The notes under the pieces are model-generated. The model was given only the letters and a program-made list of their open reading frames with translations. It ran no database searches and had not been told where the DNA came from. Positions 14,729 to 56,200 of a stretch of 64,000 nt of DNA are shown here, one piece after another. The number at the start of each line of letters is the position of its first letter. Position 1 is the first letter of the stretch. The stretch is from NCBI RefSeq assembly GCF_041886205.1, contig NZ_CP169029.1; one strand, given 5' to 3'. Both the position numbers and the translations under genes were made by a program. The stretch comes from Escherichia coli (GTDB lineage Bacteria > Pseudomonadota > Gammaproteobacteria > Enterobacterales > Enterobacteriaceae).

Positions 14729-14731
14729 TTT

Positions 14732-15286: not shown

Positions 15287-15363
15287 GCATCCGTAGCTCA
15301 GCTGGATAGAGTACTCGGCTACGAACCGAGCGGTCGGAGGTTCGAATCCTCCCGGATGCACCA
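15287..15363 (+). tRNA. tRNA-Arg (anticodon ACG), copy 4
   Basis: Identical 77-nt sequence to copy 1. Confidence 0.9.
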
Positions 15364-34090: not shown

Positions 34091-34769
34091 GCTAATGCTC
34101 CTTAATAAAAGCGTAATGGGATGTTAATGGAGATGAAAGCAGTGGATCTCATTGCCATCTGCATTTTCGCATAGCGTATATCGCTGGCTATGACTAATCA
34201 ATTAGTGAAAAATTTTTATTTAATCAGTTTTTGTAGATAAAATATTCCGTAACGGCTCGTTTTTTGTACATTGTGGATTTTTACATGCCGATATGATTTA
34301 TTTTTAATTAAATCAATTAGATATGGGCTTGCCTCTAATTTCACTAATGCAAGTTTGGGGGTGAGGTAACGCTATAAGCGTAGAGAATTCGGTGTATGTA
34401 GTGGCCGGGTCATTTTCAGCATTTTTTATGCCAGACAATGTACATTAACAGCAGAAAGCACCGGTGATGGATGTTTTCTTTTATTCTGTTATATTGCATT
34501 TTTATTCACTTTGGTTTTGTCAGGCTTGCGGAATTAGCGAGCAGAGAGCGCCGTTCTGTTCACCAATAATCTAAATTACTCATCAAAATGGCTAATATAT
34601 AATCTTGAAATTATTCTGAGAGTTTCAGAAAATAACAGCTGAAATAATCTCGCGCAGGACTGGCATACTAATTTTGTGACATATAAGGTACGCCACATCG
34701 ACATCACCAATCAAATACATACTCTTTTTTGTTTTGGTGCTCCAGCTGTTCCAGCACCATGTCCAAATG

Positions 34770-37700
34770 AAGTTCAGAAGCACCTCCACTCTCCTCTTTT
34801 GCCTGGCCACTGTCCGCTCTCAACTCCTCCATCTCACGTTTGTACGCCGAAGAGTTCCAATGTCGTCATCAGAAGTAACTGGAAGAGCAAGAGAGACACA
34901 CACACACACAGCCAACTGCATAAAAATTACGACTGTGAATGTTATAGTTGTTAATTAGCCGCCTTAAAGTTGAGAGCTTGTTGCACACGCCGTAATAATG
35001 AGGTGTTACGGTTGGCCAAATATAAATGTCATCAGTGAGCGTGCCAGCCCCCAGTGTTGTCAGGCCCGGCACCTGGAGAGCAATTTGCTGAGCCTCTGAA
35101 AGGCAGATCTTTGTCACTTCCTATTCAATGACTCAGGCGCGCTGCATGTGGGTCTTGTTGCTCTCGAGCGGTTGTTTATGGCATCTTCATCCAGTTGGTA
35201 TTCACATAAGTTGTTATTGGAAACAGAGCCCTATAAGCAAGTCCCGTCGAAGAAGAAATCCTGCCATTTAATGGTATAACCGAGACAGCACACGTGCTCA
35301 TTAGATTAACTACTGGCACCATTCTGATCTTGCATTAACGGAAGGTTCAGATTTGAATCACCGGGATGATGGGATCCAGTGGTTTTTCAAGGAATTGAAG
35401 TCCCACTTTCAGTTAGCATTTGTGGCATGTTGGCTCAACGTCACGCCACCACGTGGTGTCACCTTGATGCTGGAGACGATGTAATCTTCAGGGAAGATGG
35501 TTTTTTATGCAGAATGAAGTGAAATCGCCTTCAAGTAATGACCGATGAGCAATCATCAAGTGCGACGAAGATCCATTAAATTCTCGCTTGTGGATCAGAA
35601 TTCTGGCATCATGTGAAGTTGTTGAAACCAATGGGTCTCAGGAAGAATACTTGAGGTGGCGAATACCATCATCTACCGGAGCGGCCAAGAATGTGTTGGC
35701 GATCCCGGTCTGGTCCATAGAACTCTTTCCGTTGCACAGGAGCAAGTTGAATGCGAAGGCACCTTATTTGTGCAATGGTGCACCAGCTTTCGTGCTTGTT
35801 GTATGGAGGAGACTACAAGAACCCAACTTGTTAGGCGATTGCTTCAGGAACAGGAGCCACGCTGTGCGCTTTACAGGGCGCTGAGATTGTGAGTTGAGCC
35901 ATCAAAGTCATTTTAAGCGTTAGTTAAAATCAAGAAAACGAAGGAGAGTTAACAGTACCAGTCAGGCACAGTGTAATGAAATAAGTTAGAAGCTGTCAAA
36001 GACCGGCCAGCCGGAATGAGATCAATGCCCAAGTATAGATATTTTTTCAACAAATTAGTTTAGTAGTTCATAAGGGAGTACATGTGTTTCTGAGAATTGT
36101 TATCACCGATTCGTCGTTAGCCGTAAGGGTTTGTCTGTCAATCATCAAAACATTGTTGACTGCTTGATCTCCTTGTTCATTTTAATGTGTTTTGCTGTGT
36201 AGTCTTATTAGTCTGTGCTCATTCCCGTGTGCACCAACGCGTCATTTTTGCCCACATTTTTCGAAGCGATTTGTTAGTCAGAAGCGATGGTTGTTTAATT
36301 TGTTGGAGACAGAGAGTGAGAGAGCTGTATGTGTGTCAAGGTCAGGGACCACAAGGTGCCATCAGGTGAAGAAGGTGGAGGAACATTGGACAAAACCGGT
36401 ATGTCAGGCATGTCGATGAGCAGAAGGCGTTATATTGAAATTGCTGATTGGCAAAAGCGTTACTGGTGACTGACTGCTGAACGATAAGGGGAGCCAGAAA
36501 CCGTTGCTGGCATTTTGCTGCATATCCAGGTCGATGTTCAGGTAATGCCACAATGCCGCTGCTGATGCCAGTTTAAATCCGTCAGTCCTGCATCTTGAAT
36601 GGGGATTTCCAGCAGCAGGCTTCATGGATAACGCCAGTTGCAGAAACAGATAATCTTCAGCGTAAAGGAATTATGACAAAGGCGCAGACGTTGGCGAGCG
36701 TTGGATTTGCTGAAGAGGTGATCAATGGCTATCGCCTGCTGGATGCGGGAATTGTGTCAGGAGCTGCTGGATTATCGACTGACTGCGCGGTGATCTCGTC
36801 AGCATAATCGCCAGTCAGGTTTGGTCGATCCGTTGAACATTTCCAGATGCCGCATAAAACCAGGTCGTCGAGGAGAATTGATGTAACGTTAATGACAGAT
36901 CCAGAATGCTGGATTTGCAGGGAGATGGAGTCATAGCCCGCCACCATTGCCGGATGAAGCCGATGATAGCATCCACTTTACCGCTATCTACTGCGTCAGC
37001 GCCCAGCCTTAAGCCATAATCCTTTGTTAGGTTGTCTCCCATCATCCCCTTAATTGTGCTAGCACACCAATTGTTTACAGGATACATTTGCTTCCATATT
37101 GTGGGTGTCAAAATATAACGAACATAAGTAGTCTTGCCTTCACAGCCACCCTTGTCCTCATCCTTTTAGCTCCACCACCCACTAGGCTGTTCTTAGAGAT
37201 GGAGTTGTTGTGAGAAGAGTTTTCTGTACTGTTAATGCCAAATGCATATAATGCCAGCAACTTATCCAGATTCTTTATCTGTTAAGATTATTGTGCTACA
37301 CATAATTCTTTTGAATGCTAGAGCCATTTTTGAGAAGGTTGAAACTGTTGATGGGTTACTTTCTTATCATTATTGGAGCAGTGGAAGACCATGAACTTGT
37401 TGCATACACAACCGGTTAGTCTTTTCAATGCAGGACAATCCACTGAGAAGATATAATCGTTGATCGCAAGGAGCCAGTGAAATAGACCTCGAATTGTTTG
37501 GCTGACGAATAGGATCCCATTCCATCATCACCAACAGGAGCCAGCAGCTGATGAGATGTTAGCAGAACCAATGGACAAGCCACTGCAATGAGTGAGTTCT
37601 CGTTCTTCTGCTCTGGAACAAACTGGAATTGCTAACTGGAGATGGAGGCCAATCAGGAGAAGGAAAAGTGCCAACAGTGGCCATATGCGGAAGCTGTTAT

Positions 37701-40700
37701 TAAAATTGAAACACCTCTTGAGTGCGGTGTGAAGTAGTCTACCACCACCAAATCTTAGAAGACCTGGTGGAGGAAGAGAAAGCATCTACCTAGTGTCCGA
37801 CGGCGGCGGATTAGTTGATCACCGGGAGGAAGCATCACCCCTACGTGAAGGGAAGAGGAACGCGACGTGAAGAGGGCCGAGTCGAGGCAAAGTCGACGAC
37901 GTAAGCACATCAAGGTCAATGAGTTATTCTACACTGGAATATGTCCGAGTATTTACTTAGTGAAGAACCAATGGCTTGATCTAGGTTGGTTACCCCCGAC
38001 TAACCAATGACTACACAGGAGAAAGAAATATATAAATAAATAATAATGACAAGACCTTAGCGGTGGCGTGGAGGTTTTTGTTGTTCATTGTGATGGACAG
38101 AGTTCTGCTCATAAGAAGTATGGACGTACACTGTGGTTTAGATCAGGATTTAGTCAGGTTTATTGATAACTGTTGAGCATCTAAATGCCTTTAGGTTGCC
38201 TTACTTCAGCAGTTGCTAGCGGTGATTGTCATCACACCAGAAGAACAGAGCCAGCAAAGCCCAGCCAATGCCAGGTCAGCAGAACTCGGTCGAGTCAGGA
38301 GAAACCATGAGCGAGCGAGGTACTAGTTAGCAATGATGGAATGCCTGGACCAGAATGAGGAGATCATAGTGGTGAGTGTGCTTTCAGTGACAAAACCAGA
38401 GCCAAAACCAACAGCAACTAGCTGATGGCAGAGCCAGCTGAATTGCCTTTGCCGAGTGAAAAAATGGATGGGTGAAACACCCATCCTCAGCATCAAAACC
38501 AGAACTGATGTGTTCTGTGACAGGTTGGAAGATTGGCGTGTAGCTGGTGATGCTGCTGAGGAAGACAAAGAGCTGCCACAGCAATGGCAGAGAGGATGGC
38601 TGCTGGCCACTTTCAGTGGCTTGCTAAACCAGGTGGTTGATCACCGGACCCGGAAGTGGTGCACCAGCGAGATGCCCCACATTTCGCGTCGGGTTAGTGG
38701 TTTAATTTGTTATTTTTTTGCGGAGTGGCTGCAGATTGTTAGGTTGATTCCTGTTGATGAGATTCCACTAGGTGGGTGCAAGCTCATCCAGTCTACCTCA
38801 TCTCGTAGCTGTAGAGTGAGGGATTGTTTTACACCAGTGTGGTGAGCACTTGCTTTGCCTCAGCAGAAACATGGTGATGGATTTCCAGAGACTGATGAAT
38901 TGATGTTGTCCAGGATGCTGAGTGGAGGATGTGAGAGCAGGTTGGAGAAGACGGTCAGAGGAAGAAAGAAATTACTTTATTGTGGTGCAGGCATGGCTAG
39001 CTGGCTTAGTCGTCTGCCATCCTCGATCCATGGACATTGTCCAGCGGCAACGTCATTGCTGTTGCATGCCAGAGGACTCGGTTCTTCAGCTTTGTCCAGA
39101 TTGTCGTCTTCCGCAGACACTTGCTGAGACCTCAACATTTCAGCTAGCCACCCAGAATCGGGTTACGCAGGTGCCCCCCCCCCCCCACATCTTGAGCCAT
39201 GAGAGATCCAGATCATTTTTGCTAGTTGTGATCTAGTGGAGGGGGCGGTTGGCCTCCATCGAAGGCGTGAGATCGGGTGCTAGGCCCCATTGAGTTGCTC
39301 GATGAAGTAGTTGTATGCCGGGCGCCTTGACGTCGCACGTACGGACAATGTCGCCTTGCCGTCACAGTGCCCAGAGCCTTGCGTGTTGTGTAGACGCGCC
39401 TCCGGCGAGCTGCTTGATGATGCATGGGACATCTTTGTGGTGTAGGGCGATCGAAGGGTTTGTGAGTGGCTGCACAACCTGCACCACCGATTGTTGCTGC
39501 AGTGGGTAAGGAGTAGTGGTGGAGAAACCTGGAGGTCAGTGATAGACGATTGAAGGCCAGGTGCACCGACCTTGTCAGGGCGATGGTGCAGGGAGGTGGC
39601 GCTGCTATGTGTGGAAGTGATGGTCGGCGTGTGTTGTGGTGGTGTGGTAATTCTTCAGTCTTACTGCTTCATAAAGTTGTTGTTACCAAGAGCTGTTGTT
39701 TGGTTAATCTGCAATCTTTGAATTTCATAGTTGCATCATAGTTTGTAAGCGATACTCGGCCTGAGCAGGTGTAGCCTTCAATTGTCTGCATGGCCAACCA
39801 CTTTGGATCAAGGTGCCGAATCAAGCACGGTCGCCCGAACGAGACGATGGCCTTGAATCGACGGCACCGGGAGTCTTGGTCAGCAAGTTTGGTTAACCGC
39901 TTCACCAACGAAGGAGACCCTCTCCAACCACGCCGCCACCCAGAGTTCATTGTCTTCTCCACGGCGATTTTTAGTTAATCTATGCATATTTATTTTAGTA
40001 GTTTTCACGAGACCGAACCTTCTCCATGTACCAGTGGAGCCTTTCCAACTAAGTTGCTCACCCATTGAAAAAGAACCCATCGTTGGTACCGATGCCACTT
40101 GTACTCGATGCTTTGCCTTATGCCAGCGGCATATTTATGGTGAGAAATAGTGGAAAACCAAGTTTGGCTGCTGGCACGACACGGCTTCAACGTCAAGCCG
40201 AACAAGTGGGGTGAGGCTGAATGTTTCTTCGACACTTGGCGTTGGCGAACGACGAACCTGCTGGCTGAATGTTTATTTGGCTCACTGCAAAAGCAGCTCT
40301 CTCCCAGGCCACCTGGAGCAGCAGGCCTTCACTCTTTGTCACCTCTCCCAAGCTGGATGGTGAGTGATTCAGCTCACCAACTCATGAGGAATTTTTGCAG
40401 CACAAAAGGTGTGACAGCTGCCGCGACCAATAAGCTGCTGCAGAGACGAAAACTTGTGCAGAAATTGAATTCAGATGAGCTTCCATGCTCTGTTGATTGC
40501 ATTAATCAAGTAACTAAGAAGATGTGTTGCCTCCAGTTTGAGCCGAGTAGTTTGATGGTTTTTACTATACTGTTCAGAACTGGTCAACTTGGTTGTAGCT
40601 GTAAAGATGAGTTGAGATGCTGCCTTTACCTTTGCACTCATGCTGGTGCGAGCTGTGACCAGGAGACGACGGAAGGCCGTGGAATTGCCAGCCTCACCAG

Positions 40701-43150
40701 CTCAGCCAGAAGCTGTGTCTGACGCCTGCTCAGGCCACTGTGGGCTGCCAATGCTAGTTGCTTTCAGACATTGCGCCAGGAATCGATGGCATAATGGTGT
40801 TGCTGGCTCCAGAACAATTAGGTGTATCTCTTCCTCCATGTAACTGTTGCAGAATGTGTTTGCCCTCCAGGAAGACGCTACCCAGACCAGAAGGAAGGGG
40901 TTACTTATTACTCTTGCTTCAGCTGGTACCTGTCCACTTTAGTGTAGACTGATGTCATCAACGAGCAATGAAATGGGTGGCGGAGGCCAGCCAATGAGTG
41001 GGCAAATGCGTTGTGTGTCATAGTGGTTTATCAGCACCATGCACCGAACGTGACCAGCTTGTTGTGGTTTTTGCTATGTTGTGAGGCCGATCACGGCTCA
41101 TCCCCGTCATGCTGTGAAGAAGGACTGTGCTGAAGTTTATTACTTATTTGTCCGAAGGTTATTAATTAGGGTACATGTTCACTTATGTTGTAGACGTGCT
41201 AGGTCGACGAGGACAAAGGAGATGGAGCTGATTGCCAGGCGGACGGTGGAGGAAAACGGACGAGCCCATTGTGATGGCTGGTCACTGTGAGTGAGTGAGG
41301 AAGATTGTGAGGAAAGTGGATGGAGCAGAGAGAGAGAGAGTCCAGTGAGCCCCCAAGACGGTTTGACCTCAACCACTCAGTGGTGCAACTGTTGATCTGC
41401 ACGCACCGAATGAGACAAGACCAGGTGGTTAGGAAATGCTGCACAGAAGTGGTGCGTCAGGATGCATGTTGTGATGCTGCCTCCACCAGTGTGGCCATCA
41501 AACCATGGTGGTGTCAAGTGGTGTTGTAATGGCGCCAGACACGAAAGTGAGGACAAACTGGCTGTTTATTGTTGCAGCACCGCACTCAGCGTGAGCATTA
41601 GGCCAGGAAGAGAGCAGTTACGAGTTATCCATGTTGCCTGTGCACCACCACTCGTCCAGCTGACTGCTTCTGCGTCAGACTATGCCCTTGCCGTAACCGT
41701 TGCCATTGCCGCGACGGAGCCAACGCCACGGAGCCAGCGTCTGCACATTTGTTGTCAACTCCATGTCAAGCGACCCCTCGGAACGGTTGTGACATTTATA
41801 TGCGGTGGCAGTTTGCCGCCGTTCCATTTCAGAGTTCAGGTGTGCGGGCGACAGAGCGACTCCTGATGAGTTGGTCATCAGAGCCATGCTCCCAAAAGCC
41901 ATGCTTTGAGCTGTCACGGGGACACAAATCCTAGGATCAGGCCTCGCCCTGTGTCTTCAGCAGGAATGTCATTTTACAGTACAACTGCAGTCCACCTCAC
42001 CAAAAAAAAATCAGACGCCCATCTGTGACTCATGAATGTTTGTAGTGGTTAGGTTAGGAGAGGCAGCCACCTAGATCATGTGCCAACATCCTTGCTAGTA
42101 AGTGGTTATGTGTGAGACCAGAAGAGGTTGTTAATTCAGAGTCAACTGCTGTAAGCGGTACAGGTAGCAGCTTACTGTTTCTATGTGTTCAAAGTGACTC
42201 ACCGACTAGTTGCTCTTTCTTTCAAATTTTTGCCAACTAACTTTATATACAACCACTCACCATCAGATCAATGATGAAATATTTTGCCGACTTGTGCAGG
42301 CACATCCATGCTATGTGTGGTGGAAGAGTGAATTTAGACAGCAGAAGTCATTGGAGGTCAAATAATCCTCCACGGTACCCTTTACCACTTTATTTTCACA
42401 CCCACAAATTGATGTCACCGGACAGGCCGTCCAATCACTAGGCCAACAAGCCGTTGAAATGTTCTGCCAGCAGAAGAAAATGTAAATATGCCGCCATTGC
42501 ATCGAATTTTAGTGACTGAGTGACCACCGCCTCACCCTAGCTTCACCATTCCTACCGCCTACATCTACAACCACTCAATTCATTAAACAGCCCTTCAGGC
42601 TCAGGAAGTCTTGCAGAATGTGTTGTAATTATCTAATACAATTGTCAAAGACTTGGTGACCAAAATGAAGTGATCCATCAGTTGCCCAGGTATGCATTGT
42701 AGTCAAGTGCCCTGTTTGTGATGTTATATATATATCTGATGAATGTAATAGGTTACACAGCAGAGTTGTGAATCACAGGTTGTTTTTTCAGTGGACGATG
42801 CATTCATGTAGCCATTCTTTTTACTAGATGAGGAAGGGAGCCATCATCATTTGAAGCTAATTTAAAACATCCAAAAATGTACCAGCTACAATTGTTTTTC
42901 ATCGAAAATAGAGGAGTTGAACATTTACAGTAGCCAGAATAAAGTGAGAGGAAAAATGAAATGCAGAAAGACAGGTTAGGCCAAGATACGGTCAAAGAAC
43001 TCAATAACTAGAGGAAACGACACACACCCGCCCTGTTTTAGGGTAATAAAACATGAGATGACAAACAACTGTGTGGCTGCTTCCGGAAATAAGATGCAGG
43101 CCCGAGCCAAGCATACAATTAGATATGTCACAAACGCCTCAACTAGTAGA
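34770..43150. other. ~8.4-kb block without credible protein-coding potential and with non-E. coli sequence character (boundaries approximate)
   Basis: Longest ORF in six frames is 190 aa and the translations are Cys/Trp-rich and random-like; (CA)7 near 34896, C15 at 39173-39190, (GA)8 near 41330, A9 near 42003, (TA)6 near 42727; apparent CpG under-representation; occupies the place of stpA...csiD. Confidence 0.6.
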
Positions 43151-43155
43151 TATGA

Positions 43156-45285
43156 TCAATCAGTTGTGGAGAATCTTGAGGAACGAGAAACATGATCACT
43201 CCCTGAATGATTGATCTCTCTGATGTTGCTAGGTGAGAGGCAACCTCTCAACCTTCTTTTATTTATTATAACTAGTCCATCATGAGGAGAGTGATTAATG
43301 TTCACAGAATCCCCACGACTAAAGGCCAGAACGTTTTTAGTTGCAAATACACCCTCAAATGCGCTCCATATTCCTGCTTTATCTATATATAATGCGTGGA
43401 ATTCATTGTAGAGCTGCTGATAGGTAGAGCAACCTTTATTAAGCCACGCCTCACCGCCGACACGCGTCGACCCATCATCATTTTTAATTTCAGTCGTTGA
43501 TTTTAATACTTGGCCATCCCAGTAAACTAAAGGCCTGCTGAACGGGAGAGCGGCCATATATGCCATTGCTAATTGTTCATCTTGTTGATGGTTAAATAGA
43601 AAGTCATTGAAAAGATTGCCATTGTTAGGAAAATCGTGGTTAATGTTAATCAATATCCGTCTTTTTGATGGGATGCTTGAGATTGTTGAACCCGGTTTTG
43701 ATGCAAGGGTTTGGAGATCGCCACCAAATGAAAAAGCTTTTATCGTCTTCATGAGCAATGAAAAATCAATGGCGCTTAAATCATCTCTTTCATAAAGCAG
43801 CGATGACATTTGTTGTTCATCCAACTGACTAGTTACCAGATATTCCATGTAATTCATAACGGCTTTTTCATGATATTTTGGGTTAAATAAGTTAGTATTG
43901 TGTAATCGCTCATTATAATTTTTAAGCGGTGGGGTTATTGATCTTTCTATTTGTTCATGTTTTGAGTGTTTTGCTGCATCGTAACGTAAACCTCGTACGC
44001 CATATTTTCGCATTTCACGAACGTATTGATTTTGCAGCATAATAACCTGGTCACTTTTGGGGGTTGTTTTAGGCATTCCATTTAAACGCTTTTCTTTTAA
44101 TGCATAGAGGTTTTCCCATTCATCCTTAGAAATATTATCTTTACTTGCTTCGAAGTCTTTTGCAGTGAGATGTATATCTTCTGGATGGATTTGTTTACGT
44201 TCTTTTGTTACTGGATCTATAGTAAATGGAATCAAAACCTGACCTTGCCAATAGCCAGGGATACCACTTTCTATATCTTTACTGATCTTCGCTCGTATAT
44301 CAGTAGAGGGATAATCCAGGTCATTTTTACCACTACCCCCGATTCCCATAAAGTTAAAGGTATAATCAGGAATGATATCGATACCAAATTTTTTAGCATC
44401 TTTAACCAATGCGATAAAATCCTGCAAATCTCCCATTGGATTATGGATGGTACAAAGATCTTCGGGTTGATAAGCGTGAAACCAGTAACCTTTTTCTTCT
44501 TCGGGAGTTTCTGGTCCGTCGGCGCGGAAAGTTGTCACTGGAGGGATTTGTATATACCCATAATGGCAACGTGCAAACTCAGACATATTTTCCCTGATTT
44601 GCTGGTAGGTGGCATTAAAAGCATGAAGAATCGCTTCGCCAGGTTTTTTAGGGGTGATGATTTCACATTGTGATTTCTGAACAGCAGTAAGAGATTTACG
44701 CTCAAGTGTTTGCCGTAGATGTTCTGGATTGATTAATATTTTAAATGTTTCTTGCTGTCCGGAAGGTGACGTCACGTTAATATTATATACATCGGCTGCC
44801 AGCTCATAGTCAGGGATGTTAATAGCATATGCAACATATTTATCTTTTGGGGAGGGTTTTTCAGATATAATGTGGGTGAAATATTCAGCAGGACCATACT
44901 GGTGAACCCCCTTGTTATCTTCTCTTTCATTCATTGTATCTCTTTGATAAATCCATGTTTTTCCTTCTCCTATCCTGTCTGGCGCTGTAATGCTACGCTG
45001 TGCAGCTTTATTCAGTTCACGGTAAGTTGTATCTGGAAAAAGGGAAATTTTATAATCGTTTTTTAACAGATCATTAATGATTTTTTCTGCGTGAAAAGTT
45101 GATATAATTTCTCTGTCTTTTAAATCCTGAGGATAAACTCCACAAGCATTAATAATATTTGTTACACAGTTTAGATATTCTAATGTATTTAATTTGGAAT
45201 TTAGATCCCCGTCAGTAATGTTCCATGATAACAATGTGGGGGTGTCGATAGGTAAATTTCTTGGTCCTGGTTTTATAGAAAACAT
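43156..45285 (-). CDS. ygaQ: Alpha-amylase family (GH13-like) protein, probable intact form of ygaQ
   Basis: 709 aa AT-rich ORF; motif GVRGLRYDAAKH resembles GH13 conserved region II (GxRxDAxKH); adjacent to ileY as ygaQ is in E. coli; C-terminal ~40 codons may run into the anomalous block. Confidence 0.5.
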   Translation of the reverse strand: MFSIKPGPRNLPIDTPTLLSWNITDGDLNSKLNTLEYLNCVTNIINACGVYPQDLKDREIISTFHAEKIINDLLKNDYKISLFPDTTYRELNKAAQRSITAPDRIGEGKTWIYQRDTMNEREDNKGVHQYGPAEYFTHIISEKPSPKDKYVAYAINIPDYELAADVYNINVTSPSGQQETFKILINPEHLRQTLERKSLTAVQKSQCEIITPKKPGEAILHAFNATYQQIRENMSEFARCHYGYIQIPPVTTFRADGPETPEEEKGYWFHAYQPEDLCTIHNPMGDLQDFIALVKDAKKFGIDIIPDYTFNFMGIGGSGKNDLDYPSTDIRAKISKDIESGIPGYWQGQVLIPFTIDPVTKERKQIHPEDIHLTAKDFEASKDNISKDEWENLYALKEKRLNGMPKTTPKSDQVIMLQNQYVREMRKYGVRGLRYDAAKHSKHEQIERSITPPLKNYNERLHNTNLFNPKYHEKAVMNYMEYLVTSQLDEQQMSSLLYERDDLSAIDFSLLMKTIKAFSFGGDLQTLASKPGSTISSIPSKRRILININHDFPNNGNLFNDFLFNHQQDEQLAMAYMAALPFSRPLVYWDGQVLKSTTEIKNDDGSTRVGGEAWLNKGCSTYQQLYNEFHALYIDKAGIWSAFEGVFATKNVLAFSRGDSVNINHSPHDGLVIINKRRLRGCLSPSNIREINHSGSDHVSRSSRFSTTD

Positions 45286-45844
45286 AATAACGTTCCTCTA
45301 ATGGTAGAGTAATATGATGTATACGGAAACATAAAAATGTTTAATTGTTATGAAAGTAATTGCAAACAGATGTCCTATTTTTATCCAATATTTATATGGA
45401 AAAGGATAATGCTTAAATCTGTTTTTTTAATTATCGATGTGGTCTGGAGAGGCAACTGTCAAAAATCGCTCATACGAAACTAATTATTAGCAGAATAAGT
45501 TCTATAAAAGAATATATTGCTATATGAAGTTTATTTTTATGGAGTGAAAAGTAACAGATATCATAATGATGCGAAAACTCTTCAGTTAATGTAATAAACT
45601 TATATTATTAGATACAAAATCATTACAAAGTATCATTGAATCAATGATAACTATAGATAGTGTTAATTATTAACATTTGCTTGTTGACTGCGAGTATCGA
45701 CTTTGCGAATGGAGGCGATGTCGGGTTTTATGTCGCATGTATTGACGACCCAAGGTGAATGGGAACGCATAAAAATCTGTTATTTACATCATAAGATCAT
45801 CATGTTTATTGCGTGGTTTATAAGTATTGTTATTGCATACTTAA

Positions 45845-45920
45845 GGCCCTTTAGCTCAGTGGTTAGAGCAGGCGACTCATAATCGCTTGGTCGCTGGTTC
45901 AAGTCCAGCAGGGGCCACCA
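45845..45920 (+). tRNA. ileY: tRNA-Ile2 (anticodon CAU, lysidine-modified type)
   Basis: 76 nt GGCCCTTTAGCTCAGTGGTTAGAGCAGGCGACTCATAATCGCTTGGTCGCTGGTTCAAGTCCAGCAGGGGCCACCA. Confidence 0.85.
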
Positions 45921-46036
45921 AATAAAACAAGGACTTAGACAGGAAGCTGGCTAAGTCCTTTTTGTTTTGTTTCAATCTGGGTGACGTAATGGGTGACGTA
46001 ACTCAACTATAGGTGCCGTAGTCAGGGAGATTTAGC

Positions 46037-46831
46037 ATGAGCTTTAAGGATAAAGTTGAAGAGAAAAAAATGCGCCGTATGGCCCGTCCCCCTGAGTTAA
46101 CGGTAAAGGACTGGATTAGCCTTTATGATCTTCTTCGTTCAGCCAAAGCTCAAGACTCAGAAGCCATGTACGAAGACTTCGCCTCTGTGCTGTTAACTAC
46201 CCTGTCGGTTGAGCATCATCCGGAACTATACCGCCTGGACGGAAACAAACTAAACGCTGTTGCCGATGACCATTTTGCCTGGGACCTACTATCCGCCCCA
46301 ATGAAAGGGAAAATGTCCCCTGAAGAATTGGCGAAGCGCCCGAAGACCCTTTCCCAACTTCTTTGTATCTACGATGAAGATATCAGTAACGACGAGTCAC
46401 TTCGTACACATGGCTTCTTGCGTGACGCTATTGCCCCTATCCTCGATTTCGAGCTTCTGGATAGCATCGAAGATGAGCCTGACTACAAAGAAAAATATTT
46501 CGAGTTGCTAGCAGCGCAAAAGCACTCGACTCCCCCGCCACTAAGAGGGGAAAGTTATGCTATCAAACGAGAAGAGTTGCTGATCACAGCCCTTGCGGTT
46601 ATCTCTCAAAATCAAAGAGACGCTAATAAAAAGGTCGTCCCAACAGTTACTGAACTTCTGAATCAGATAGAAAAACATGCCTCTGCGTTCTGGCCTCACA
46701 GTAAACAACTTCCGATGTCTCGTGAGAATGCTTCTAAAGAGCTAGGCTTCGCCTTACATCTTTTAGAACAACCAAATCAGAATATTGAATTTCTTCGGGA
46801 AGCCAAAAAAGCAAAAAGAAAAAGTGCATAA
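46037..46831 (+). CDS. Hypothetical protein (264 aa), acidic, no recognisable motif
   Basis: ATG with AGGGAG RBS; first gene after the tRNA 3' end, where an integrase is normally found. Confidence 0.55.
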   Translation: MSFKDKVEEKKMRRMARPPELTVKDWISLYDLLRSAKAQDSEAMYEDFASVLLTTLSVEHHPELYRLDGNKLNAVADDHFAWDLLSAPMKGKMSPEELAKRPKTLSQLLCIYDEDISNDESLRTHGFLRDAIAPILDFELLDSIEDEPDYKEKYFELLAAQKHSTPPPLRGESYAIKREELLITALAVISQNQRDANKKVVPTVTELLNQIEKHASAFWPHSKQLPMSRENASKELGFALHLLEQPNQNIEFLREAKKAKRKSA

Positions 46832-46963
46832 AAAGAAATAGTTACAAAAGGTACCCAGTAATCTTCAGGAAGGTACACGAGAAATATACCGTTCAGTTTG
46901 ATTAACTCCGTTCAGTTTCAGCTTTCACCACCAGGAGTTATTCAATTGAAAAATAAACCAACC

Positions 46964-47167
46964 ATGTCTGATAAGGTTGTCGCCCTTCATCAGCCCCAAC
47001 GTCTGATTCGCATTGATACAATGCTTCAGCTCCTCGATTGCAGTCGCACCACCCTCTACCGCTGGGTTAAAGCTGGCATTTTCCCACAGCCGATAATGCA
47101 TGAGGGCCGAACCGTAGGATGGCCAGCCAATACGTATCAATGCTGGCTTGAGCAAAATAACAAGTAA
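46964..47167 (+). CDS. alpA: AlpA-family phage/island transcriptional regulator (MerR-like HTH)
   Basis: IRIDTMLQLLDCSRTTLYRWVKAGIFPQPIMHEGRTVGWPANTYQCWLEQ matches the AlpA pattern; ORF track start 46898 is a TTG-initiated extension, ATG at 46964 more likely. Confidence 0.7.
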   Translation: MSDKVVALHQPQRLIRIDTMLQLLDCSRTTLYRWVKAGIFPQPIMHEGRTVGWPANTYQCWLEQNNK

Positions 47168-47272
47168 TTCTGTTTGTTAAAGGGCTGAAATATTCAGCCC
47201 TTTCTTCATCTGACAATGAAACAAACTGGAACAAAAACGATTATTTTCACCTATTCTGCGACATGCTAAAAC

Positions 47273-48589
47273 ATGAGTAACTCTCTGATTAATCAAGTAA
47301 CAAAGCCCTCACCTGGTCAGGAACTCACCTCGGTATTTAATACTATTACGCCCGATAAGCCTGGCAACCTTGTTGAATATCAGCCAAAGGGAACGTTTGT
47401 TTTCAAAGAAGTGATGTGGTCTGTGCTGCCAGAGAAACGCAACCAGGACACGAAGATCATGAAAAGAATCTTCGGGGCAGTTGACAAGGTATCAGCGATG
47501 TCTCGCTTTCTTGCGGTCAGATATGATTTTCGGCTCCCGACCTACAGTGCGGATAATCGCATAATGGATGATTTCCATAATTTACTTTTCCGCCAGTTAA
47601 GTAAGAACTACCCAAAATCGTTTATCAGCTATCTTTGGGTAAGAGAGCAGGGCTCAGGGGAAGCACAGCATTATCACTATTTGTTGATGCTGGATGGCAA
47701 CTATATCCGTTATCCAAATAAGCTGAATACGATTGTCCGACATTGCTGGGAACAGGTTGCTGGTGGTTCGGTATGGTTCCCGGAAAACGGTTATTACTTT
47801 GTGAGCGAAAATGATCTCAAGACCTATACCGAATTGATGCTGAGAGTTAGCTATCTGGGTAAGCGCCGTACTAAAGAGTCAATTGATAAAGGTATCAAAC
47901 TTTTTGGCTCAGGCATGCGCAAACCGAAACCTGTCGCGCCTTCACGCCAAAAGTCTGCAATAACACCCTGCAAGCCAATCAACCAAAAAGCGGAGACGAA
48001 AACCAACGATCAGGATATGACGTTGAAATCCACCTACTCAGGAATGTTGGACAAATATTTTCTGGGCAAAGCCCGATTACCCGCCGTTCTGCGTAAACGT
48101 TCATCCTATGAACTTTATGACGAAAATAAATGGTGGTGTAATTCACCACGTTGGTCCGGCCATCGTCATAACTACGTGTTAGAGGCTCTGATTACTGGGA
48201 TCAGCCTTTCTGATTACGCACGCAAGTACAAGTTGAATCCAGTACGGGTATATGCAAACTGTCGCCGTGTTGGGGGGCAAAGCCTTAAAATTATTCACTG
48301 GGCATGGCATCGCTATTGCTTCCAGAAAAGCAAATCCACACAGGATGACTACATTAACAATCACCGGCTGAATCATAAAACAGCTAAAAAGCAGTTACGG
48401 CGTAAACCAATGAGCTCTCACTGGAGCCAGCACTTTGATCGATATTATCAAAAGTACTGGCCGAAAGGCTGGACTGTGGCCGACTACTGCCGTGAACACA
48501 ATCTGGTCGCCAGCACTGCCAGACGTTATATAGTCGATTTTCCATTTATAGGCCTGATAGACCCGTTCTTGTTGAAACCATGGTTATAG
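47273..48589 (+). CDS. HUH-motif protein, YagK/YfjJ-like (inovirus Gp2-type replication-initiator-like domain)
   Basis: 438 aa; HUH-like motif AQHYHYLLML; typical neighbour of alpA in CP4-type islands; C-terminal half basic, Trp/His-rich. Confidence 0.5.
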   Translation: MSNSLINQVTKPSPGQELTSVFNTITPDKPGNLVEYQPKGTFVFKEVMWSVLPEKRNQDTKIMKRIFGAVDKVSAMSRFLAVRYDFRLPTYSADNRIMDDFHNLLFRQLSKNYPKSFISYLWVREQGSGEAQHYHYLLMLDGNYIRYPNKLNTIVRHCWEQVAGGSVWFPENGYYFVSENDLKTYTELMLRVSYLGKRRTKESIDKGIKLFGSGMRKPKPVAPSRQKSAITPCKPINQKAETKTNDQDMTLKSTYSGMLDKYFLGKARLPAVLRKRSSYELYDENKWWCNSPRWSGHRHNYVLEALITGISLSDYARKYKLNPVRVYANCRRVGGQSLKIIHWAWHRYCFQKSKSTQDDYINNHRLNHKTAKKQLRRKPMSSHWSQHFDRYYQKYWPKGWTVADYCREHNLVASTARRYIVDFPFIGLIDPFLLKPWL

Positions 48590-49176
48590 AGATGAAAACA
48601 CCATAACAGTGTCACCTGGTATACTTACTGAGCGCGGCGTAACTTAAATATAAACACTTAGCCGCCATCAGTAAGCAGAGCCTTATCAACACTACCAGGG
48701 AATTATTGTGCAGCATGATAGCTGAGGTACCTCTCAATTCTTGACGGACATTAACGCACAGACAACGCTGATTACCTCCTGTAAGCCAATTTATATCTGC
48801 TTGCTGCCACATATCCGCTGGGACTAATCCCCTTTAAACACCTTTTACTTCAAAAAAATGTTTTCCTTCTGATTTATCCCATACGCGAAATAATGAAGAT
48901 TTTATTTTAATTACTAATACTTTCAATGAGATAAGATGCATACATTCTTACACTCATATGATCACTTTTATTTTTCTTTTAATATCAACACGTTATGAAT
49001 TGATCAGCACAAAAGTCACTGCAGGGGGTTAGCTGATTGAACGTTTCAGTTCGTTTCTAATGGCCACATATAGATTCACATCAAGAACTAGTGATCACTG
49101 TAGGGTAACGGTATGCCCAGATCAGCCTGCAGGGTATTCGCTGCGGATGACATGAAAAACAAAGACAGGGGATTGC

Positions 49177-49824
49177 TTACGGGTCAACAAACACACTGAT
49201 GGGGAGGTTAAACCGGCGCGCAAGTGCTCGCTTGTGATCCAGTGTTAATGTGCAATCCCCTTTCAGGATGCGACTCACCAGAGATTTATTACCAATCTCT
49301 TCTTCAAAATCGCTCTGAGTCAGTTTGTGCTGATCCATCAGTACGCGCAGTAAGGCAACACCCGTTGGGACCGCTGCAATACGGCTATTAAATTCAGCAA
49401 ACTCCGGCGCTTCATCTTCATACTGACCGATTTTCGCAACCAGAATATCCACCAGCGGATGGTCCGGCTCGTGTTCAATCAGATACTCGACCAGAGCCAG
49501 TGCATCTTCACTGTGGAAGCGTACGACTGATGTATAGGTAACATTTTGTTCAGTAATATATTTCATGGCTGCCAGTAAGTAGGAAGCTTTGAAAGTCACG
49601 TCCTGATAGTCCTTAGCTAACAAACTCCCATTCTCTTCAAACCGTTCAACAAATGCTGCAACTTCTTTTGGATCGATACGGCTGGTTTTATCTTTTCCGT
49701 TTCGAACAAACAGCTTTTGTTCTTCAGTATATAGCGTAAAAGGTACCTTCCTTGCCCCAGTAGACAGTTCAACTGGTTGGGAAAAAGACTCCAACATTAA
49801 ATGATAGAAATCTTTATAAGTCAT
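49177..49824 (-). CDS. Two-domain protein: unknown N-terminal domain + C-terminal XRE-family HTH
   Basis: 215 aa; C-terminus LTQSDFEEEIGNKSLVSRILKGDCTLTLDHKRALARRFNLPISVF fits HTH_XRE; lies 89 nt downstream of mcrC on the same strand. Confidence 0.6.
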   Translation of the reverse strand: MTYKDFYHLMLESFSQPVELSTGARKVPFTLYTEEQKLFVRNGKDKTSRIDPKEVAAFVERFEENGSLLAKDYQDVTFKASYLLAAMKYITEQNVTYTSVVRFHSEDALALVEYLIEHEPDHPLVDILVAKIGQYEDEAPEFAEFNSRIAAVPTGVALLRVLMDQHKLTQSDFEEEIGNKSLVSRILKGDCTLTLDHKRALARRFNLPISVFVDP

Positions 49825-49913
49825 GATTACTACTCCCTCATCATTTTAGCACTCAAGAAAATACATGATGTGGTTGATTATCCGGTTGATAATTATGAAT
49901 CGTCATCGTCTCA

Positions 49914-51215
49914 TTACGGGGAAAACAGGGGGAAGGACGATTGCCACTCACCTTCCACTAATGCCCCTGATTCAAGCTCGAAGGGCACACACCAGAGCGA
50001 TAAATGTTTATCAAAATGGAACACTGGCAACGGAGTATCAAAAAACTGATGACGTGGATATATCAGCATCATATTCCCCTTCCCTTGCAGATATTTTTGC
50101 CCATAAGCGAACATCTGATACAGATCAGCCTGGTTAATTTCATACTTTCTCAGGCTGTTATCAGCTCGGCTGTCTAACAGCTTCCATTTGGCATCCAGTA
50201 CCATTACCTGCTCACCTGTGATGAGAAAGTCAGGTTTAAGCATGAACCATTGTTGAGGAGCCCTTTCGCCAGCAGGTACATGATCTAACAAATAATGACG
50301 TTTTGCCTGCTCAATAAGCTGATAATCCCTCAGCAAAGATAAAGCCAAACTGCGCCCCACCCAGCATTCATATAATTTTTCCATCGGGAACAACAGCGAG
50401 ATCCCCTGATGCAACCCATGCTGAAAATCTGGATTCAGTTTTTCCAGAATAAGTTGGCACCATGGCTTGATGGCACGATAAGCATAGAGATATTTACCGT
50501 TGCTCCATTGCGCCAGAGGCTGCGTTGTACTGCCACAAATTGGCTCTATACCGTCCAGTTGGTGGCTCAACGTGTTCGCCTGTCGCCAGCTCTGCCCCTC
50601 TTTGGTCATTTTAAGCACCCAATTCAGGGCCGTACGTAACAGACGGTTTTCAACTCGCTGAGGTGAAAACTCCGCATAACGCACATGAAAGCGAGCATCT
50701 CTACCAGGAGGCTGTCTCATTTGTGCCGTGATGTTCAACTGACCACGGATAAAAGCGCTGTGCTCATCCTCAACAAGGTGGTAGTCGAACCGCAACCCTT
50801 TGTGTACCAGTTCGGTAAGATGCCGCAAGAACTCGCTGAAAATCCACTCATGCATCGGCTGGTTGCTCCGCTGCAATGCAGCCTGATTAACTTCTCGGGG
50901 TGTAATCCCCAATGAAGCGCTGAGCATTCGACGTAAAAGCTGACGCAGGGGGATTATCTCAGTTGGCGCTTCAAATGTGGTTTTGGGCAGAATTTCAATT
51001 GACTCGCCATTCGGGGATTGTAGATAACCGACATAGCTTCCCAAACGCAAAAACCGCTTCCCTTCTCGGCTGAGAATTTGAGAGGTACCACTCCACTTTT
51101 GTTGCAATTGCTCAAGCCAGGAAAAGGTTGCCTCAGAGACAATTCCCAAATCCATACTGGCTGTTTGAGAACTATCACAAGTCAGCAGAGCATATTCCCG
51201 GACCTGGATCATCAT
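49914..51215 (-). CDS. mcrC: McrC-family nuclease subunit of a type IV (modification-dependent) restriction system
   Basis: 433 aa; PD-(D/E)xK-like VLDAKWK motif; 4-nt overlap with upstream McrB-like gene. Confidence 0.75.
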   Translation of the reverse strand: MMIQVREYALLTCDSSQTASMDLGIVSEATFSWLEQLQQKWSGTSQILSREGKRFLRLGSYVGYLQSPNGESIEILPKTTFEAPTEIIPLRQLLRRMLSASLGITPREVNQAALQRSNQPMHEWIFSEFLRHLTELVHKGLRFDYHLVEDEHSAFIRGQLNITAQMRQPPGRDARFHVRYAEFSPQRVENRLLRTALNWVLKMTKEGQSWRQANTLSHQLDGIEPICGSTTQPLAQWSNGKYLYAYRAIKPWCQLILEKLNPDFQHGLHQGISLLFPMEKLYECWVGRSLALSLLRDYQLIEQAKRHYLLDHVPAGERAPQQWFMLKPDFLITGEQVMVLDAKWKLLDSRADNSLRKYEINQADLYQMFAYGQKYLQGKGNMMLIYPRHQFFDTPLPVFHFDKHLSLWCVPFELESGALVEGEWQSSFPLFSP

Positions 51216-53194
51216 GTGACAATACCCTGATAAGCTTCTACCGACGCGAAAGCACGTTCATTGATGCGAAAACGCCTGTCAGACAAGCTATCCGCAATAT
51301 CTTTCGGGAATAGTTCAGAGAATGACGGTAATTGTGCTGACTGTTGCAACAGGATAAAACGGTTTTCTTTCGCTTTTACCGAATCATTAAGCACCCAACC
51401 AATGCGCTCATAATCATCAAAGAAATACTCTCTCAGTAATGGAATGATTTTGTTCTGGAAGATGCTGGCCAGACAGGCTTCGCGGTCGGCATTATTTTCT
51501 AATTTTTTTAGTGGCATAAAGTAAGCATGGCCAATCATATGTTCACTATCCAGCAGCGCTTCGATCCGCTGATTAATACGCGTTAACAACGTTTCGACAT
51601 CAACACCGAACGCAGTGACCCCAGCTAACAGCTCCGGTCGTGCGGGCATTTCGGTAAAGCTAAAGCGTCGTCTTAGCGCCAAGTCCATTTGGATGAGTGA
51701 TTTATCCGCAGTATTCATCGTCCCAATGACATAAACATTTTGCGGTACTGAGAATGCTTGCTTTGAATAAGGGAGCATCAGCGACCGCTCATCATCGGCC
51801 CCTTGACGTTTGTCCGGCTCAAGAAGAGTAATAAGCTCACCAAAGATACGTGCTATATTACCGCGGTTGATTTCATCTATTATCAGTACATGTGGTAGAT
51901 CCTGACTATCGGCATTCTCAACAGGAGCCAGCAACTGAGTTAATTTTTCACGATCAATCGTCGTATCCTGCAACTCATATAGGGTCATCTGAGATAGTGA
52001 CTTGATGAAAATTTGCTCTTTAGGAAGGCTTGGGGTGTATGTTCTTAACCATTTAACTGAACGCATTTGATGGTAATACTCACGTTCATCATTGGGTAAA
52101 TAACTATACTCACCTGTAATCTCAGCTATTGCACGGAACTTATGATTTCCATCAGAGACGACGACTAAATCGCCATTCTTAATAATATTTTTAAAGGTAT
52201 TCACGGCAACAGCCATATAATTACTGGTGCCTTCCAATGACTGTTTTTCTGATGCAATCCGAGCTTTGACTGACTCATAGGTAGAGCAGTTACTAAAATC
52301 GATATCTTCTCCCCAACCTAGCAGGACATAATTGTTTGCCAGGCAGTCCTCATACACATCCTCTTCTCCGCCCATGGTATTACCCAGAGACATCTTCCAG
52401 ATCCGCCGACCTTTGAGTGAGATAGATTGTGTTGCACTCCCCTGAACTTTAACCCTGGCATTCAGGCACAGCTGTTTAAAAATACCATCCACAACTTCGT
52501 AGCGAAGCGCGCCCGATTTTTCATCAGTAGTTGCGCGAATCCCTTCGATAAAATCTTCATAGGAGAAGCTCTGATGGAAGGTGGTAAACATAATGCGCTG
52601 CTTTTCTACCAACGCCTTATAGCGTTCATTTACCAACTCCCGTAAGTCATTGCCATGATGTTCGAGCGTAGCCTGTTGGTACCACGTATTATCGGCAATT
52701 TTGACCGCCATTTCGGTGGTACTGTAGGTTTTACCCGTGCCGGGTGGTCCAAAGAGAATTTGGTTTAAGGGATACATTAACGATTGTTCCTTATTTTCGT
52801 TGTCTCTTTTTAGTCTGGGTTGGGTAGTTATAGATGGTTTACCACCCAGCAAAGCCACCAGCGTCTGCAACGCTTCAACGGATTCAACATCAGCCGCGAA
52901 ACCATATTGGGATGTACCGTTATCTTTCGGATAACGGCGGTAGCTGGTGCTTTTTACTTTTTCCCAAAGGCAGTGGATACCCGAAATGCGATCAATTTCC
53001 GCTTTTACGGCAAGGGTTTCAGGTGCAAGAACCAATGGACTCTTTTTAACCACGCCGTCCCGGCTGCGTTTGACATACAGATACTTTCCATTCCCGAGCG
53101 CATGTTCGGATGCATAGCTTGGCTCGAATTTTCCCGCCTCAAGCCGGTAACCCAATTCATTCAACGCCTGGTATATCTCGAAAGAATTCAGCAT
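51212..53194 (-). CDS. mcrB: McrB-family AAA+ GTPase with atypical N-terminal domain and ~190-aa insertion between Walker A and Walker B
   Basis: 660 aa; Walker A GPPGTGKT, McrB-type Walker B LIIDEINRGNIARIFGEL, FHQSFSYEDFIEG; inserted segment RRIWKMSLG...GDLVVVSDGNHKFRAIAEITGEY...RSVKWL. Confidence 0.75.
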   Translation of the reverse strand: MLNSFEIYQALNELGYRLEAGKFEPSYASEHALGNGKYLYVKRSRDGVVKKSPLVLAPETLAVKAEIDRISGIHCLWEKVKSTSYRRYPKDNGTSQYGFAADVESVEALQTLVALLGGKPSITTQPRLKRDNENKEQSLMYPLNQILFGPPGTGKTYSTTEMAVKIADNTWYQQATLEHHGNDLRELVNERYKALVEKQRIMFTTFHQSFSYEDFIEGIRATTDEKSGALRYEVVDGIFKQLCLNARVKVQGSATQSISLKGRRIWKMSLGNTMGGEEDVYEDCLANNYVLLGWGEDIDFSNCSTYESVKARIASEKQSLEGTSNYMAVAVNTFKNIIKNGDLVVVSDGNHKFRAIAEITGEYSYLPNDEREYYHQMRSVKWLRTYTPSLPKEQIFIKSLSQMTLYELQDTTIDREKLTQLLAPVENADSQDLPHVLIIDEINRGNIARIFGELITLLEPDKRQGADDERSLMLPYSKQAFSVPQNVYVIGTMNTADKSLIQMDLALRRRFSFTEMPARPELLAGVTAFGVDVETLLTRINQRIEALLDSEHMIGHAYFMPLKKLENNADREACLASIFQNKIIPLLREYFFDDYERIGWVLNDSVKAKENRFILLQQSAQLPSFSELFPKDIADSLSDRRFRINERAFASVEAYQGIVT

Positions 53195-53223
53195 TTCCTA
53201 CACCACTCCTTGATGAAAAAGCG

Positions 53224-56200
53224 TTAAGCCCCTTTCAACATATCAAACACCACGCGGGCAAAGCCCTTCGCCAGTTCAGGATTAGAGAGGTATTGCACCA
53301 TCATCTCCTGCTGGGCGTCGTTGCTGTCCATCACGGCATCATCAATGGCTTTCGGGAAATCGCCCAGCATCGCCTGCTCACGCGTATTGTTCGCAATCTG
53401 GGTCATCACCGCCTGGTTTTCTGACAGCTTGTCGCGCACCGCGAAGGCATAATTGATCATGTCTTTATCGGTCAGATTATCGGTGACGAACAGCTCGTTC
53501 AGGCGCGCCAGGATATTCGACAGAAACTCTTCTTTCTTGTCTTTCGGCTTCGCCGTACCGACATCATTCCCCGGTGTGATTTTGTATTCTGCCGCATCTT
53601 CCTGCAGCTTCAGATGCTGTTCGTGGAGTTTCGACAGGCGATAATGGCTCATCTCCACGTTGCTTAAATCAATCTCATCTTCTTCGATACGCTGTTCATG
53701 CAGTAACGGGCGCAGGTGGCGGGCAAATAGGCTCAGTTTTTCCAGGTTCTTGTCGTCGTAATCGACGATTTGCGACATAAACTCGTAAAAGCGGACAAAG
53801 CTGCCGAGGTCTTTCTTGAAGATATCCAGCTTACTTTTTTCTTTCTCGCACTCTTTGAAGCTGTTTTCCGCATTGGTGATCAGCACAACATCGCCGGTCT
53901 TCTTAGTACGTTCGAAGATCGCTTTGGCCTTTACATACTCGTCAATCGCCGAGGTGTAACGCTGTTTCCAGCGCTGCACCGCTGGTTTGCAGATATTACT
54001 AATGGCCGCGTTGGATTTGTTTTTGCTGAAGAACGCTTCGCAGAACTGCTCCACTTCGTTCCACAGGAAAATACCGCTGGTACGCAGCTTTTCAAAGAGC
54101 TCAAAGACCTGTTGCGGGTCGCTGACATCCGTCAGTTCTGCTGTCTGGTAGTACGGCTGGAAAGCCCCCAAAATCTCGTCGGGCTCGTTGTAGAAATCGA
54201 GCACAAAGGTGCCTGACTGCGCCTTCCCCGGATAGGTACGGTTCAGGCGTGACAGCGTCTGTACACACTCCACGCCGCCAAGCTTTTTATCCACATACAT
54301 GGCACACAGCTTGGGTTGGTCAAAACCGGTCTGGAATTTGTTGGCCACCAGCATCACCTGGTAGTCGTCGGTATCAAACGCTTTGCGCATATCCCGGCCT
54401 TTCAGGCCTGGGTTCATATTGATTTCGGTGAACTTCTGGTTAAGCAATGCAAGGCTATTGTGGTCATCTTCATGGAACTCAACTTCACCGGAGAACGCCA
54501 CCATTGCGCTGATCTTGTCGTATTTTTGCTCGGCGATGTATTTATCGAATGCCAGCTTATAGCGCACCGCTGCTTTACGCGAACTGGTCACCACCATCGC
54601 TTTCGCCTGACCAGCCAGTAAGTGCATCACATGCTTGCGGAAGTGCTCAACAATCACCTTCACTTTCTGCGACACGTTATGATCGTGCAGCGATACCCAC
54701 TGGTTGAGTTTGATCTTGGCTTTCTTGCTGTCTACTTCCCGGTCAGGATCGTCCAGCTTTTGCAGCAGCTTGTACGCCACCTTGTAGTTGGTGTAGTTCT
54801 TCAGCACATCAAGTATGAAGCCTTCTTCGATGGCCTGACGCATTGAGTAAACGTGAAACGCTTCCGGTTTGTTCGTTTTCGACGCCGGTTCCTGCGGATT
54901 AGGACGACGGCCAAACAGCTCCAGCGTTTTGGCTTTCGGCGTGGCGGTAAAGGCGTAATAGTTGAGATTGTTGCTGCCTTTACGTGCGGCGACGGTGGCA
55001 TCCAGAATATCTTCTGAAGACATCTCCACATCGTCATCCGCTTCTTCGGTCATAAGCACTTCTTTCAGCTGACGCGCCGTAGAACCACTCTGCGAGGAGT
55101 GCGCTTCATCGGCAATCACCGCGTATTTGCGCTGCTTGAGGCTGACGCTGTTTTCAATCGCCTTCAGGACAAACGGGAACGTCTGGATAGTGACGATAAT
55201 GATCGGCTGCGAGTTTTCCAGCGCGCTGGCCAGCTTCTCCGATTTAGAACCGTCGCCTTCTTTGTTATTGATCCGCCCGACCACGCCATCCTGATGCTCA
55301 AACTGATAGATGGTGTCCTGCAGCTGATCGTCAAGCACGGTGCGGTCCGTCACCACAATCACCGAATGGAACTGCTTCTCGCCATTTTCATCATACAGGC
55401 GGGAAAGCTGATGGGCCGTCCAGGCGATAGAGTTAGATTTGCCCGACCCGGCACTGTGCTGAATCAGGTATTTATTGCCGGTGCCTTCCACTGTGGCGGC
55501 GGTGATCAGTTTATTCACCACATCCCACTGGTGATAGCGTGGGAAAATCAGGCTCTCACTTTTGTACTTCAGGCCAATGGCATCTTCTTTTTCTACGATT
55601 TGCAGATGCACGAAGCTCGCGAGAATTTTCAGCAGATTGTCCGGCAGTAGCACCTCATTCCACAGGTAGCTGGTGGCGTAGTCGTTGGCATCTTCCGGGA
55701 TATCGTTCCCCGCACCGCCGTCATGGGTGCCTTTGTTAAACGGCAGGAAGAAGGTTTTATCGCCCTCGAGTTTGGTCGCCATAAACACTTCGTACTGGCT
55801 GACGGCAAAGTGCACCAGCGCGCCGCGTTTAAAGGTCAGCAGCGGCTCGGGTTTATTAGTGCCTGGGTCCTTTGGCAAACGCGTTTTCTTATATTGCGTA
55901 ATGGCGTTTTGCACCGTCTGCTTAAATTCAGACTTCAGTTCCAGGGTCGCTATCGGCAGGCCATTAACGAACAATACCAGGTCGATACGCCATTTCTTCG
56001 CTTTTATACCGGTATCTTCAAATGCGGCGTTCGATGCATGCGGGCTGTAAACCAGCTCCGGCACGATGCGGCAGATATTCTGTTTATAACGAGCCAGTGT
56101 TTCCGGATTGAGGTTATGTTCCGGCTTAAACTGGCACAGAGAAAAACGCGCGTTATGGCTTTTGATACCATGTCGCAGCACGCCTAAAGTGCCATAGGTG

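Follow-up and report, generated by a model that had tools for sequence, protein, structure and literature searches.

The closest described relatives of the gene considered here are the ygaQ genes of other Escherichia coli. In its natural form, as found in strain 6EVA, ygaQ is 2253 nt long and encodes a protein of 750 aa (WP_000491446.1), and it is followed, in order, by glaH, lhgO, gabD, gabT, gabP, csiR, kbp, yqaE, ygaV, ygaP and stpA. Full-length homologues end ...VIINKGNEEVEGTWPNKLQPGKYK...PPNYLYL, at 750 aa, and one cluster at 90% identity comprises 15,629 member sequences. Beyond this E. coli cluster homologues are few: one in Escherichia albertii (59% identity), a few ~800-aa proteins at 32–39%, and then ordinary alpha-amylases of 440–510 aa at 23–31%. 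A look-up of the 750-aa product returned 24 contigs, including genomes that combine the island found at ileY in the DNA described here with an intact gab cluster.

The gene is not intact everywhere. In K-12 MG1655, ygaQ (b4462) is annotated as a pseudogene of 2253 nt, with in-frame stops at W111, W346 and W614. In E. coli GDSC2227PM (locus 7064–9259)—the only complete genome with the same island—an IS1A insertion naturally disrupts the gene, which is another independent inactivation besides the three K-12 stops. The one biochemical report that we found concerns a 110-aa fragment of the K-12 protein, to which a single-stranded DNA 5'-flap nuclease activity has been ascribed, and the over-expression of which reportedly leads to mitomycin C resistance (PMC4725251); for the enzymatic activity of full-length YgaQ we found no report in the literature. 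The gene also holds an intragenic promoter that is repressed by H-NS, as is typical of AT-rich acquired genes (PMC7229825). The gene ygaQ is AT-rich, acquired horizontally and lodged between ileY and glaH, and is most likely kept silent by H-NS under normal conditions.

The locus examined here lies in a window of 64,000 nt of E. coli DNA (the whole stretch that was analysed; contig NZ_CP169029.1 of assembly GCF_041886205.1). It takes the form of an open reading frame (ORF) at 43156..45285 on the minus strand, with an ATG start and 709 codons, the GC content of which is 37.8% versus 51.5% in the core part of the window. When positions 42000–46000 were compared by megablast with 5,426 complete E. 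coli genomes, matches began at 43254 and ran rightwards only; the matched feature in those genomes is an ‘alpha-amylase family glycosyl hydrolase’ adjoining a tRNA-Ile gene. The ORF is a known, ordinary E. coli gene of the ygaQ type, and belongs to the GH13 alpha-amylase family. A preliminary description of the window, made from the letters alone, had recognized a single AT-rich 709-aa ORF with a GxRxDAAKH motif at a locus that is broken in K-12. It was right on both counts: the motif occurs as GLRYDAAKH at residues 432–440, and b4462 carries its three in-frame stops. It was mistaken in calling the gene intact, for 74 native codons, which include most of the Alpha-amylase_C domain, have been lost.

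On the ileY side the surroundings of the gene are native; on the opposite side a degenerate counterpart stands in place of glaH. Between the start of ygaQ and ileY lies an AT-rich region (29% GC; 45286..45844) identical to that of natural genomes, and beyond it ileY itself (45845..45920, plus strand), a tRNA-Ile2 gene with a CAU anticodon that ARAGORN labels Met (CAT) and RefSeq tRNA-Ile. The CAU anticodon of ileY is decoded as Ile after lysidine modification. The tRNA gene adjoins ygaQ on its right-hand side and is where a defense island is attached; the island occupies positions 45924–60175. Its genes encode a 264-aa hypothetical protein, an AlpA-like HTH protein, a YagK/YfjJ protein, a 215-aa HTH-like ORF, McrC and a 660-aa McrB-like AAA ATPase, followed by a Type I restriction-modification system (hsdR, hsdS, hsdM). 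Most of this island is shared with only one of the 5,426 complete genomes (GDSC2227PM); the island to the right of ileY is also present in GCA_012373595.2, another genome with the 750-aa product, along with an intact gab cluster.

A reverse-transcriptase gene (60359–64000, plus strand) runs off the end of the window, and extends to 1258 aa in a matching Logan contig; against the PADLOC model for Drt1a (DRT type 1, RT-nitrilase) its score is 1337 bits. The stretch has no megablast match in the 5,426 complete E. coli genomes, and matches contig SRR29303307_299 at 100% identity; beyond the limits of the window that contig also has a 427-aa integrase. We had considered that 60371–64000, with no listed ORF and no megablast match, might be a second block of corrupted sequence, and rejected the idea in view of the 100% identity to the Logan contig and the Drt1a ORF. 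Far to the left, at 14636–15363, one tRNA-Ser(GCT) and four tRNA-Arg(ACG) genes form a cluster that resembles the serV-argVYZQ array ordinarily lying downstream of csrA and alaS.

What kind of protein does the natural gene specify? The Pfam Alpha-amylase model (PF00128) matches residues 264–525 of both the native protein and the product of the window ORF at 23.8–23.9 bits, just above the cut-off of 22; Alpha-amylase_C (PF02806) matches residues 649–738 of the native protein at 31.1 bits. Searches with phmmer against amylases in the PDB gave matches up to E = 5e-8. The conserved regions of GH13 enzymes can be located by translation and alignment. Region II is GLRYDAAKH (43966..43992, minus strand), which aligns to GFRYDAAKH of the Bacillus alpha-amylase and contains the predicted nucleophile, D436. 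The predicted general acid/base, E481, lies in region III, YMEYL (43843..43845, minus strand), in a column that is invariant among 49 sequences, and H550-D551, in region IV, NHD (43633..43638, minus strand), occupy nearly invariant columns and provide the predicted transition-state-stabilizing Asp. In the same 49-sequence alignment G432, R434, D436 and A437 are also invariant, and D307, N311, K439 and H440 nearly so. An earlier alignment of 11 sequences had given the impression that YgaQ lacks the acid/base Glu; the residue was simply misplaced there, and we discarded the idea. In region I (DxxxNH), D307 and N311 are conserved and the Escherichia clade has Phe for His (DYTFNF). The window ORF retains all three members of the predicted triad, D436/E481/D551.

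The AlphaFold model of the native 750-aa protein (pLDDT 83.9, pTM 0.87) begins with a partly disordered N-terminal region, continues with the barrel and ends with a C-terminal beta-sandwich, the strands of which lie at 652–742. Foldseek matches this model to alpha-amylases from Pseudoalteromonas, Bacillus, insects and pancreas (E = 1e-21 to 1e-23; target TM 0.70–0.79), and the top 50 PDB matches are all alpha-amylases apart from one related GH13 enzyme, a cyclomaltodextrin glucanotransferase. As modeled, the natural protein has at its N-terminus an extension of ~215 aa that is specific to the family, then a (beta/alpha)8 catalytic barrel, and finally the beta-sandwich of domain C. From the conserved GH13 triad together with the amylase fold, YgaQ is most likely a retaining enzyme, an alpha-glucan hydrolase or transferase. 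No hydrophobic signal-peptide core could be seen by eye at the N-terminus, and the protein is probably cytoplasmic. The extension itself—residues 1–215, encoded at 44641–45285 on the minus strand—has no Pfam match, and is shared only by the Escherichia relatives and a few ~800-aa proteins; the model gives it helices at 26–75, strands at 165–185 and low-confidence loops at 92–161. It is to the first 110 residues of the extension that the published ‘YgaQ nuclease’ corresponds.

The point at which the window ORF departs from natural ygaQ can be fixed to the nucleotide. From 43258 to 55285, to the right of the break, the window and GCA_012373595.2 show 0 differences in 12,028 nt. The single mismatch inside the BLAST match is at 43257, where the window has T and ten of ten natural loci have C, and it sits three bases from the edge of the match. 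The breakpoint is 43257/43258, then, which is codon 676/677. The proteins, correspondingly, are equal through K676 and first differ at residue 677, where R replaces G: after VIINK the window ORF has RRLRGCLSPSNIREINHSGSDHVSRSSRFSTTD and a stop, the native protein GNEEVEGTWPNKLQPGKYK...GEPPNYLYL and a stop. The native part of the gene, codons 1–676 (43258..45285, minus strand; identical to GCA_012373595.2), covers the ~215-aa N-terminal extension and the catalytic barrel, and takes in the first strands of domain C as well. The rest, at 43156..43257 on the same strand, is a non-native tail of 33 codons with its stop at 43156–43158, read through from ygaQ into a degenerate block; 74 native codons are gone.

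It was alignment with full-length homologues, the course recommended in the preliminary description, that revealed the 750-aa C-terminus and thereby the breakpoint. That description had suspected the last ~40 codons of the ORF to be read-through into the neighboring block. The suspicion was well founded, in that the tail is real and non-native and the protein leaves the native sequence at residue 677; only the length was overestimated, 33 residues being exactly the string that was quoted. Nor does any of the full-length homologues compared share the tail, RRLRGC...STTD, so the suspicion stands. The exact 709-aa product has no record in the public gene index (NCBI, ENA, Logan).

The tail is a fortuitous read-through into the block, and no real feature. 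On its strand of the block the stop-codon frequency is 0.046, and the probability of reading through at least 33 codons is ~0.21; because a run of this length is expected about one time in five, it is unremarkable. In the alignment of the block with native DNA the counterpart of the native stop falls at ~43059–43061, and there is no longer a stop there. The ygaQ frame runs 33 codons into the block and halts at a stop that arose by chance. What results is a chimeric 709-aa product without most of domain C: the break at residue 676 takes away six or seven of the nine strands, only residues 649–676 of the domain remain, and the PF02806 match is lost. GH13 enzymes are expected to be destabilized by the loss of domain C, as YgaQ would be, and we infer that the ygaQ of the window loses its function through truncation.

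The block into which the ORF runs is the more peculiar object. It spans 34663..43257, ~8.6 kb without long ORFs, and replaces 10.17 kb of native DNA, namely stpA, ygaP, ygaV, yqaE, kbp, csiR, gabP, gabT, gabD, lhgO, glaH and the last 74 codons of ygaQ. The preliminary description took it for foreign DNA. Were it a horizontally acquired segment, inserted with deletion of the native genes and clipping ygaQ as it entered, one would understand why its composition is unlike that of the core and why megablast finds no match to it in E. coli. But megablast and blastn are equally blank for all 5,426 complete E. coli genomes and for plasmids and phages, an exact 26-mer scan of GTDB representative genomes likewise yields nothing, and no integrase or IS element was found in the block, nor repeats or mobile-element features at its edges. 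An rRNA operon or structured RNA, which might account for the lack of ORFs, was also considered and rejected: Rfam and ARAGORN give no RNA or tRNA match in the block, and find only ileY. The longest stop-free stretch is 192 codons, no more than chance provides (in shuffled sequences the mean is 140 and the maximum 217; in the native region the longest is 502).

What contradicts a foreign origin outright is homology, and of a collinear kind. Compared under permissive scoring with the native region that it replaces, the block proves collinear with it, with a local match of E = 1e-51. The global alignment score is 654, versus -976 +/- 26 in 20 shuffles (z = 62), and when the block is divided into deciles, in ten out of ten the best score is that with the collinear native decile or one next to it. 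About 60% of alignment columns are identical; 1926 native nt are deleted and 353 inserted. At the protein level tblastx against the native region finds no significant remnants, as is to be expected of a sequence with indels every few bases. The block, then, is not foreign DNA: it copies the native stpA-gab-glaH region collinearly, in badly degraded form, and we regard acquisition from elsewhere as scarcely credible.

The damage to this copy is heavy and peculiar in kind. Simulations that reproduce the figures for the block call for ~30–35% substitution, 22% deletion and 8–10% insertion. Match fractions at codon positions 1/2/3 are 0.59/0.63/0.59, and those for coding and non-coding DNA 0.61 and 0.63; since they are equal, selection played no part in the block. 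GC content falls from 52.5% in the native region to 47.3%. Observed/expected ratios are 0.59 for CpG, 0.60 for TpA and 1.39 for CpA/TpG, versus 1.27 for CpG in the native region, and a scan of the window in 1-kb steps finds this dinucleotide pattern only between 35 and 43 kb; such depletion of CpG and TpA is vertebrate-like, and unlike E. coli. C followed by G has become T at a frequency of 0.24 versus ~0.10 in other contexts, on one strand only, and changes that depend on context and differ between strands in this way fit no simple uniform model of mutation. The number of deletions per 500 alignment columns varies along the block from 23 to 164, and the rate of deletion is flat with respect to homopolymer length up to 4 nt. 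New homopolymers have appeared: C13 at 39174, A9 at 42002 and runs of T6–T7, of which C13 and A9 have no native counterpart.

Could this be genuine DNA of the strain, worn down by long neutral decay or by natural, localized hypermutation, such that the truncated YgaQ with its 33-aa tail is really encoded? A bias towards deletion, a fall in GC and the absence of a codon-position signal are just what the neutral decay of pseudogenes is expected to produce. The edges of the block speak otherwise. To its left, identity with natural isolates ends at 34662, after 0 differences in 8,663 nt; to its right there are 0 in 12,028 nt; and in between about one-third of the bases have been substituted. Because a third of the bases have changed between flanks that lack even one difference, ordinary divergence or recombination is excluded, and no clock or known mutator makes such a step. 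Depletion of CpG with an excess of TpG/CpA is not a mutational signature of E. coli, moreover, and the block is missing from all 5,426 complete genomes. We consider this reading very improbable. The more specific proposal that real E. coli DNA was hypermutated locally, or resynthesized by an error-prone process, with a third of the bases substituted, a fifth deleted and the flanks untouched, strains belief further; were it true, that event would have cost the strain stpA, the gab/csiD operon and the last part of ygaQ.

A more mundane possibility is that a single long read, uncorrected—early nanopore 1D, for example—was put in to close a gap in a hybrid assembly, in which case the truncation of ygaQ would be a sequencing artefact. 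Sharp edges beside perfect flanks are what such a patch would leave, and damage that is biased towards deletion, asymmetric between strands, dependent on context and uneven along the block is in keeping with it. Early MinION R7 reads were only 67% accurate, with 8% deletions, and their 5-mer base-calling cannot yield homopolymers of more than five (PMC5093776). By that yardstick—no homopolymer beyond the k-mer of the base-caller, and an error of ~12–33%—the block falls outside the range on both counts: it contains runs of C13, A9 and T7, and its ~30–35% substitutions and 22% deletions exceed the 24% and 8% of R7. Deletions that are independent of homopolymer length up to 4 nt do not suit a raw nanopore patch either, the region replaced is unique core DNA, and so an unlikely place for an assembly gap, and the chimeric gene is missing from the gene index of NCBI, ENA and Logan. 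We disfavor this explanation, in consequence, and think it unlikely.

What we are left with, and hold with considerable confidence, is that ygaQ in the window is native only through codon 676, that its tail is chimeric, and that the block beyond is most likely an alteration made in silico or an artefact of assembly. At 43257 the sequence switches to an 8.6-kb scramble of stpA-to-glaH that is blind to selection, biased towards deletion and depleted of CpG. We infer that the block and the tail are most likely non-biological in origin.

For biology the consequences are slight: ygaQ is catalogued and widespread in E. coli, K-12 carries it as a pseudogene, and the oddity of its C-terminus here stems from the neighboring block. 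For quality control they are greater. Annotation and analysis should not take the 709-aa ‘protein’ for a natural variant, and 34663–43257 ought to be handled as sequence that is corrupted or synthetic rather than as an island of foreign DNA. The full-length protein is another matter, since its intact predicted GH13 triad and confident amylase fold fit awkwardly with the nuclease claimed for the 110-aa fragment.

How, finally, does the locus compare with its relatives? Measured against WP_000491446.1, the ORF has the same start codon, is identical through residues 1–676, and occupies the same place beside ileY with the same AT-rich region upstream; the neighboring island, too, is the same as in GCA_012373595.2. 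There the likeness stops: in WP_000491446.1 GNEEVEGTWPNKLQ...PPNYLYL follows, 74 more residues that complete domain C, whereas in the window ORF 33 unrelated residues follow. The K-12 gene (b4462; once split into ygaQ and ygaR) lies at the same locus and has the same 2253-nt frame, but differs from the intact allele by 76 nucleotides; three of its Trp codons (111, 346 and 614) have become stops, and its native 3' end has been kept. The allele in the window has none of these three stops, but has lost the 3' end.

Among enzymes of solved structure, the nearest are the three-domain GH13 alpha-amylases, for which we took those of Pseudoalteromonas haloplanktis (AHA; 1AQH/1B0I), Bacillus subtilis (1BAG/1UA7), Drosophila (8OR6) and pancreas. 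YgaQ, as modeled, shares with these the (beta/alpha)8 barrel, domain B and the C-terminal beta-sandwich, and in sequence it shares region II, GxRxDAAKH, the acid/base Glu and region IV, NHD. Overall, however, it is only 15–19% identical to them, and it differs by an N-terminus in which no hydrophobic signal-peptide core is visible by eye; by the extra N-terminal region of ~215 aa, partly of low confidence in the model; by a longer spacing between D436 and E481; and by the Phe that takes the place of His in region I.
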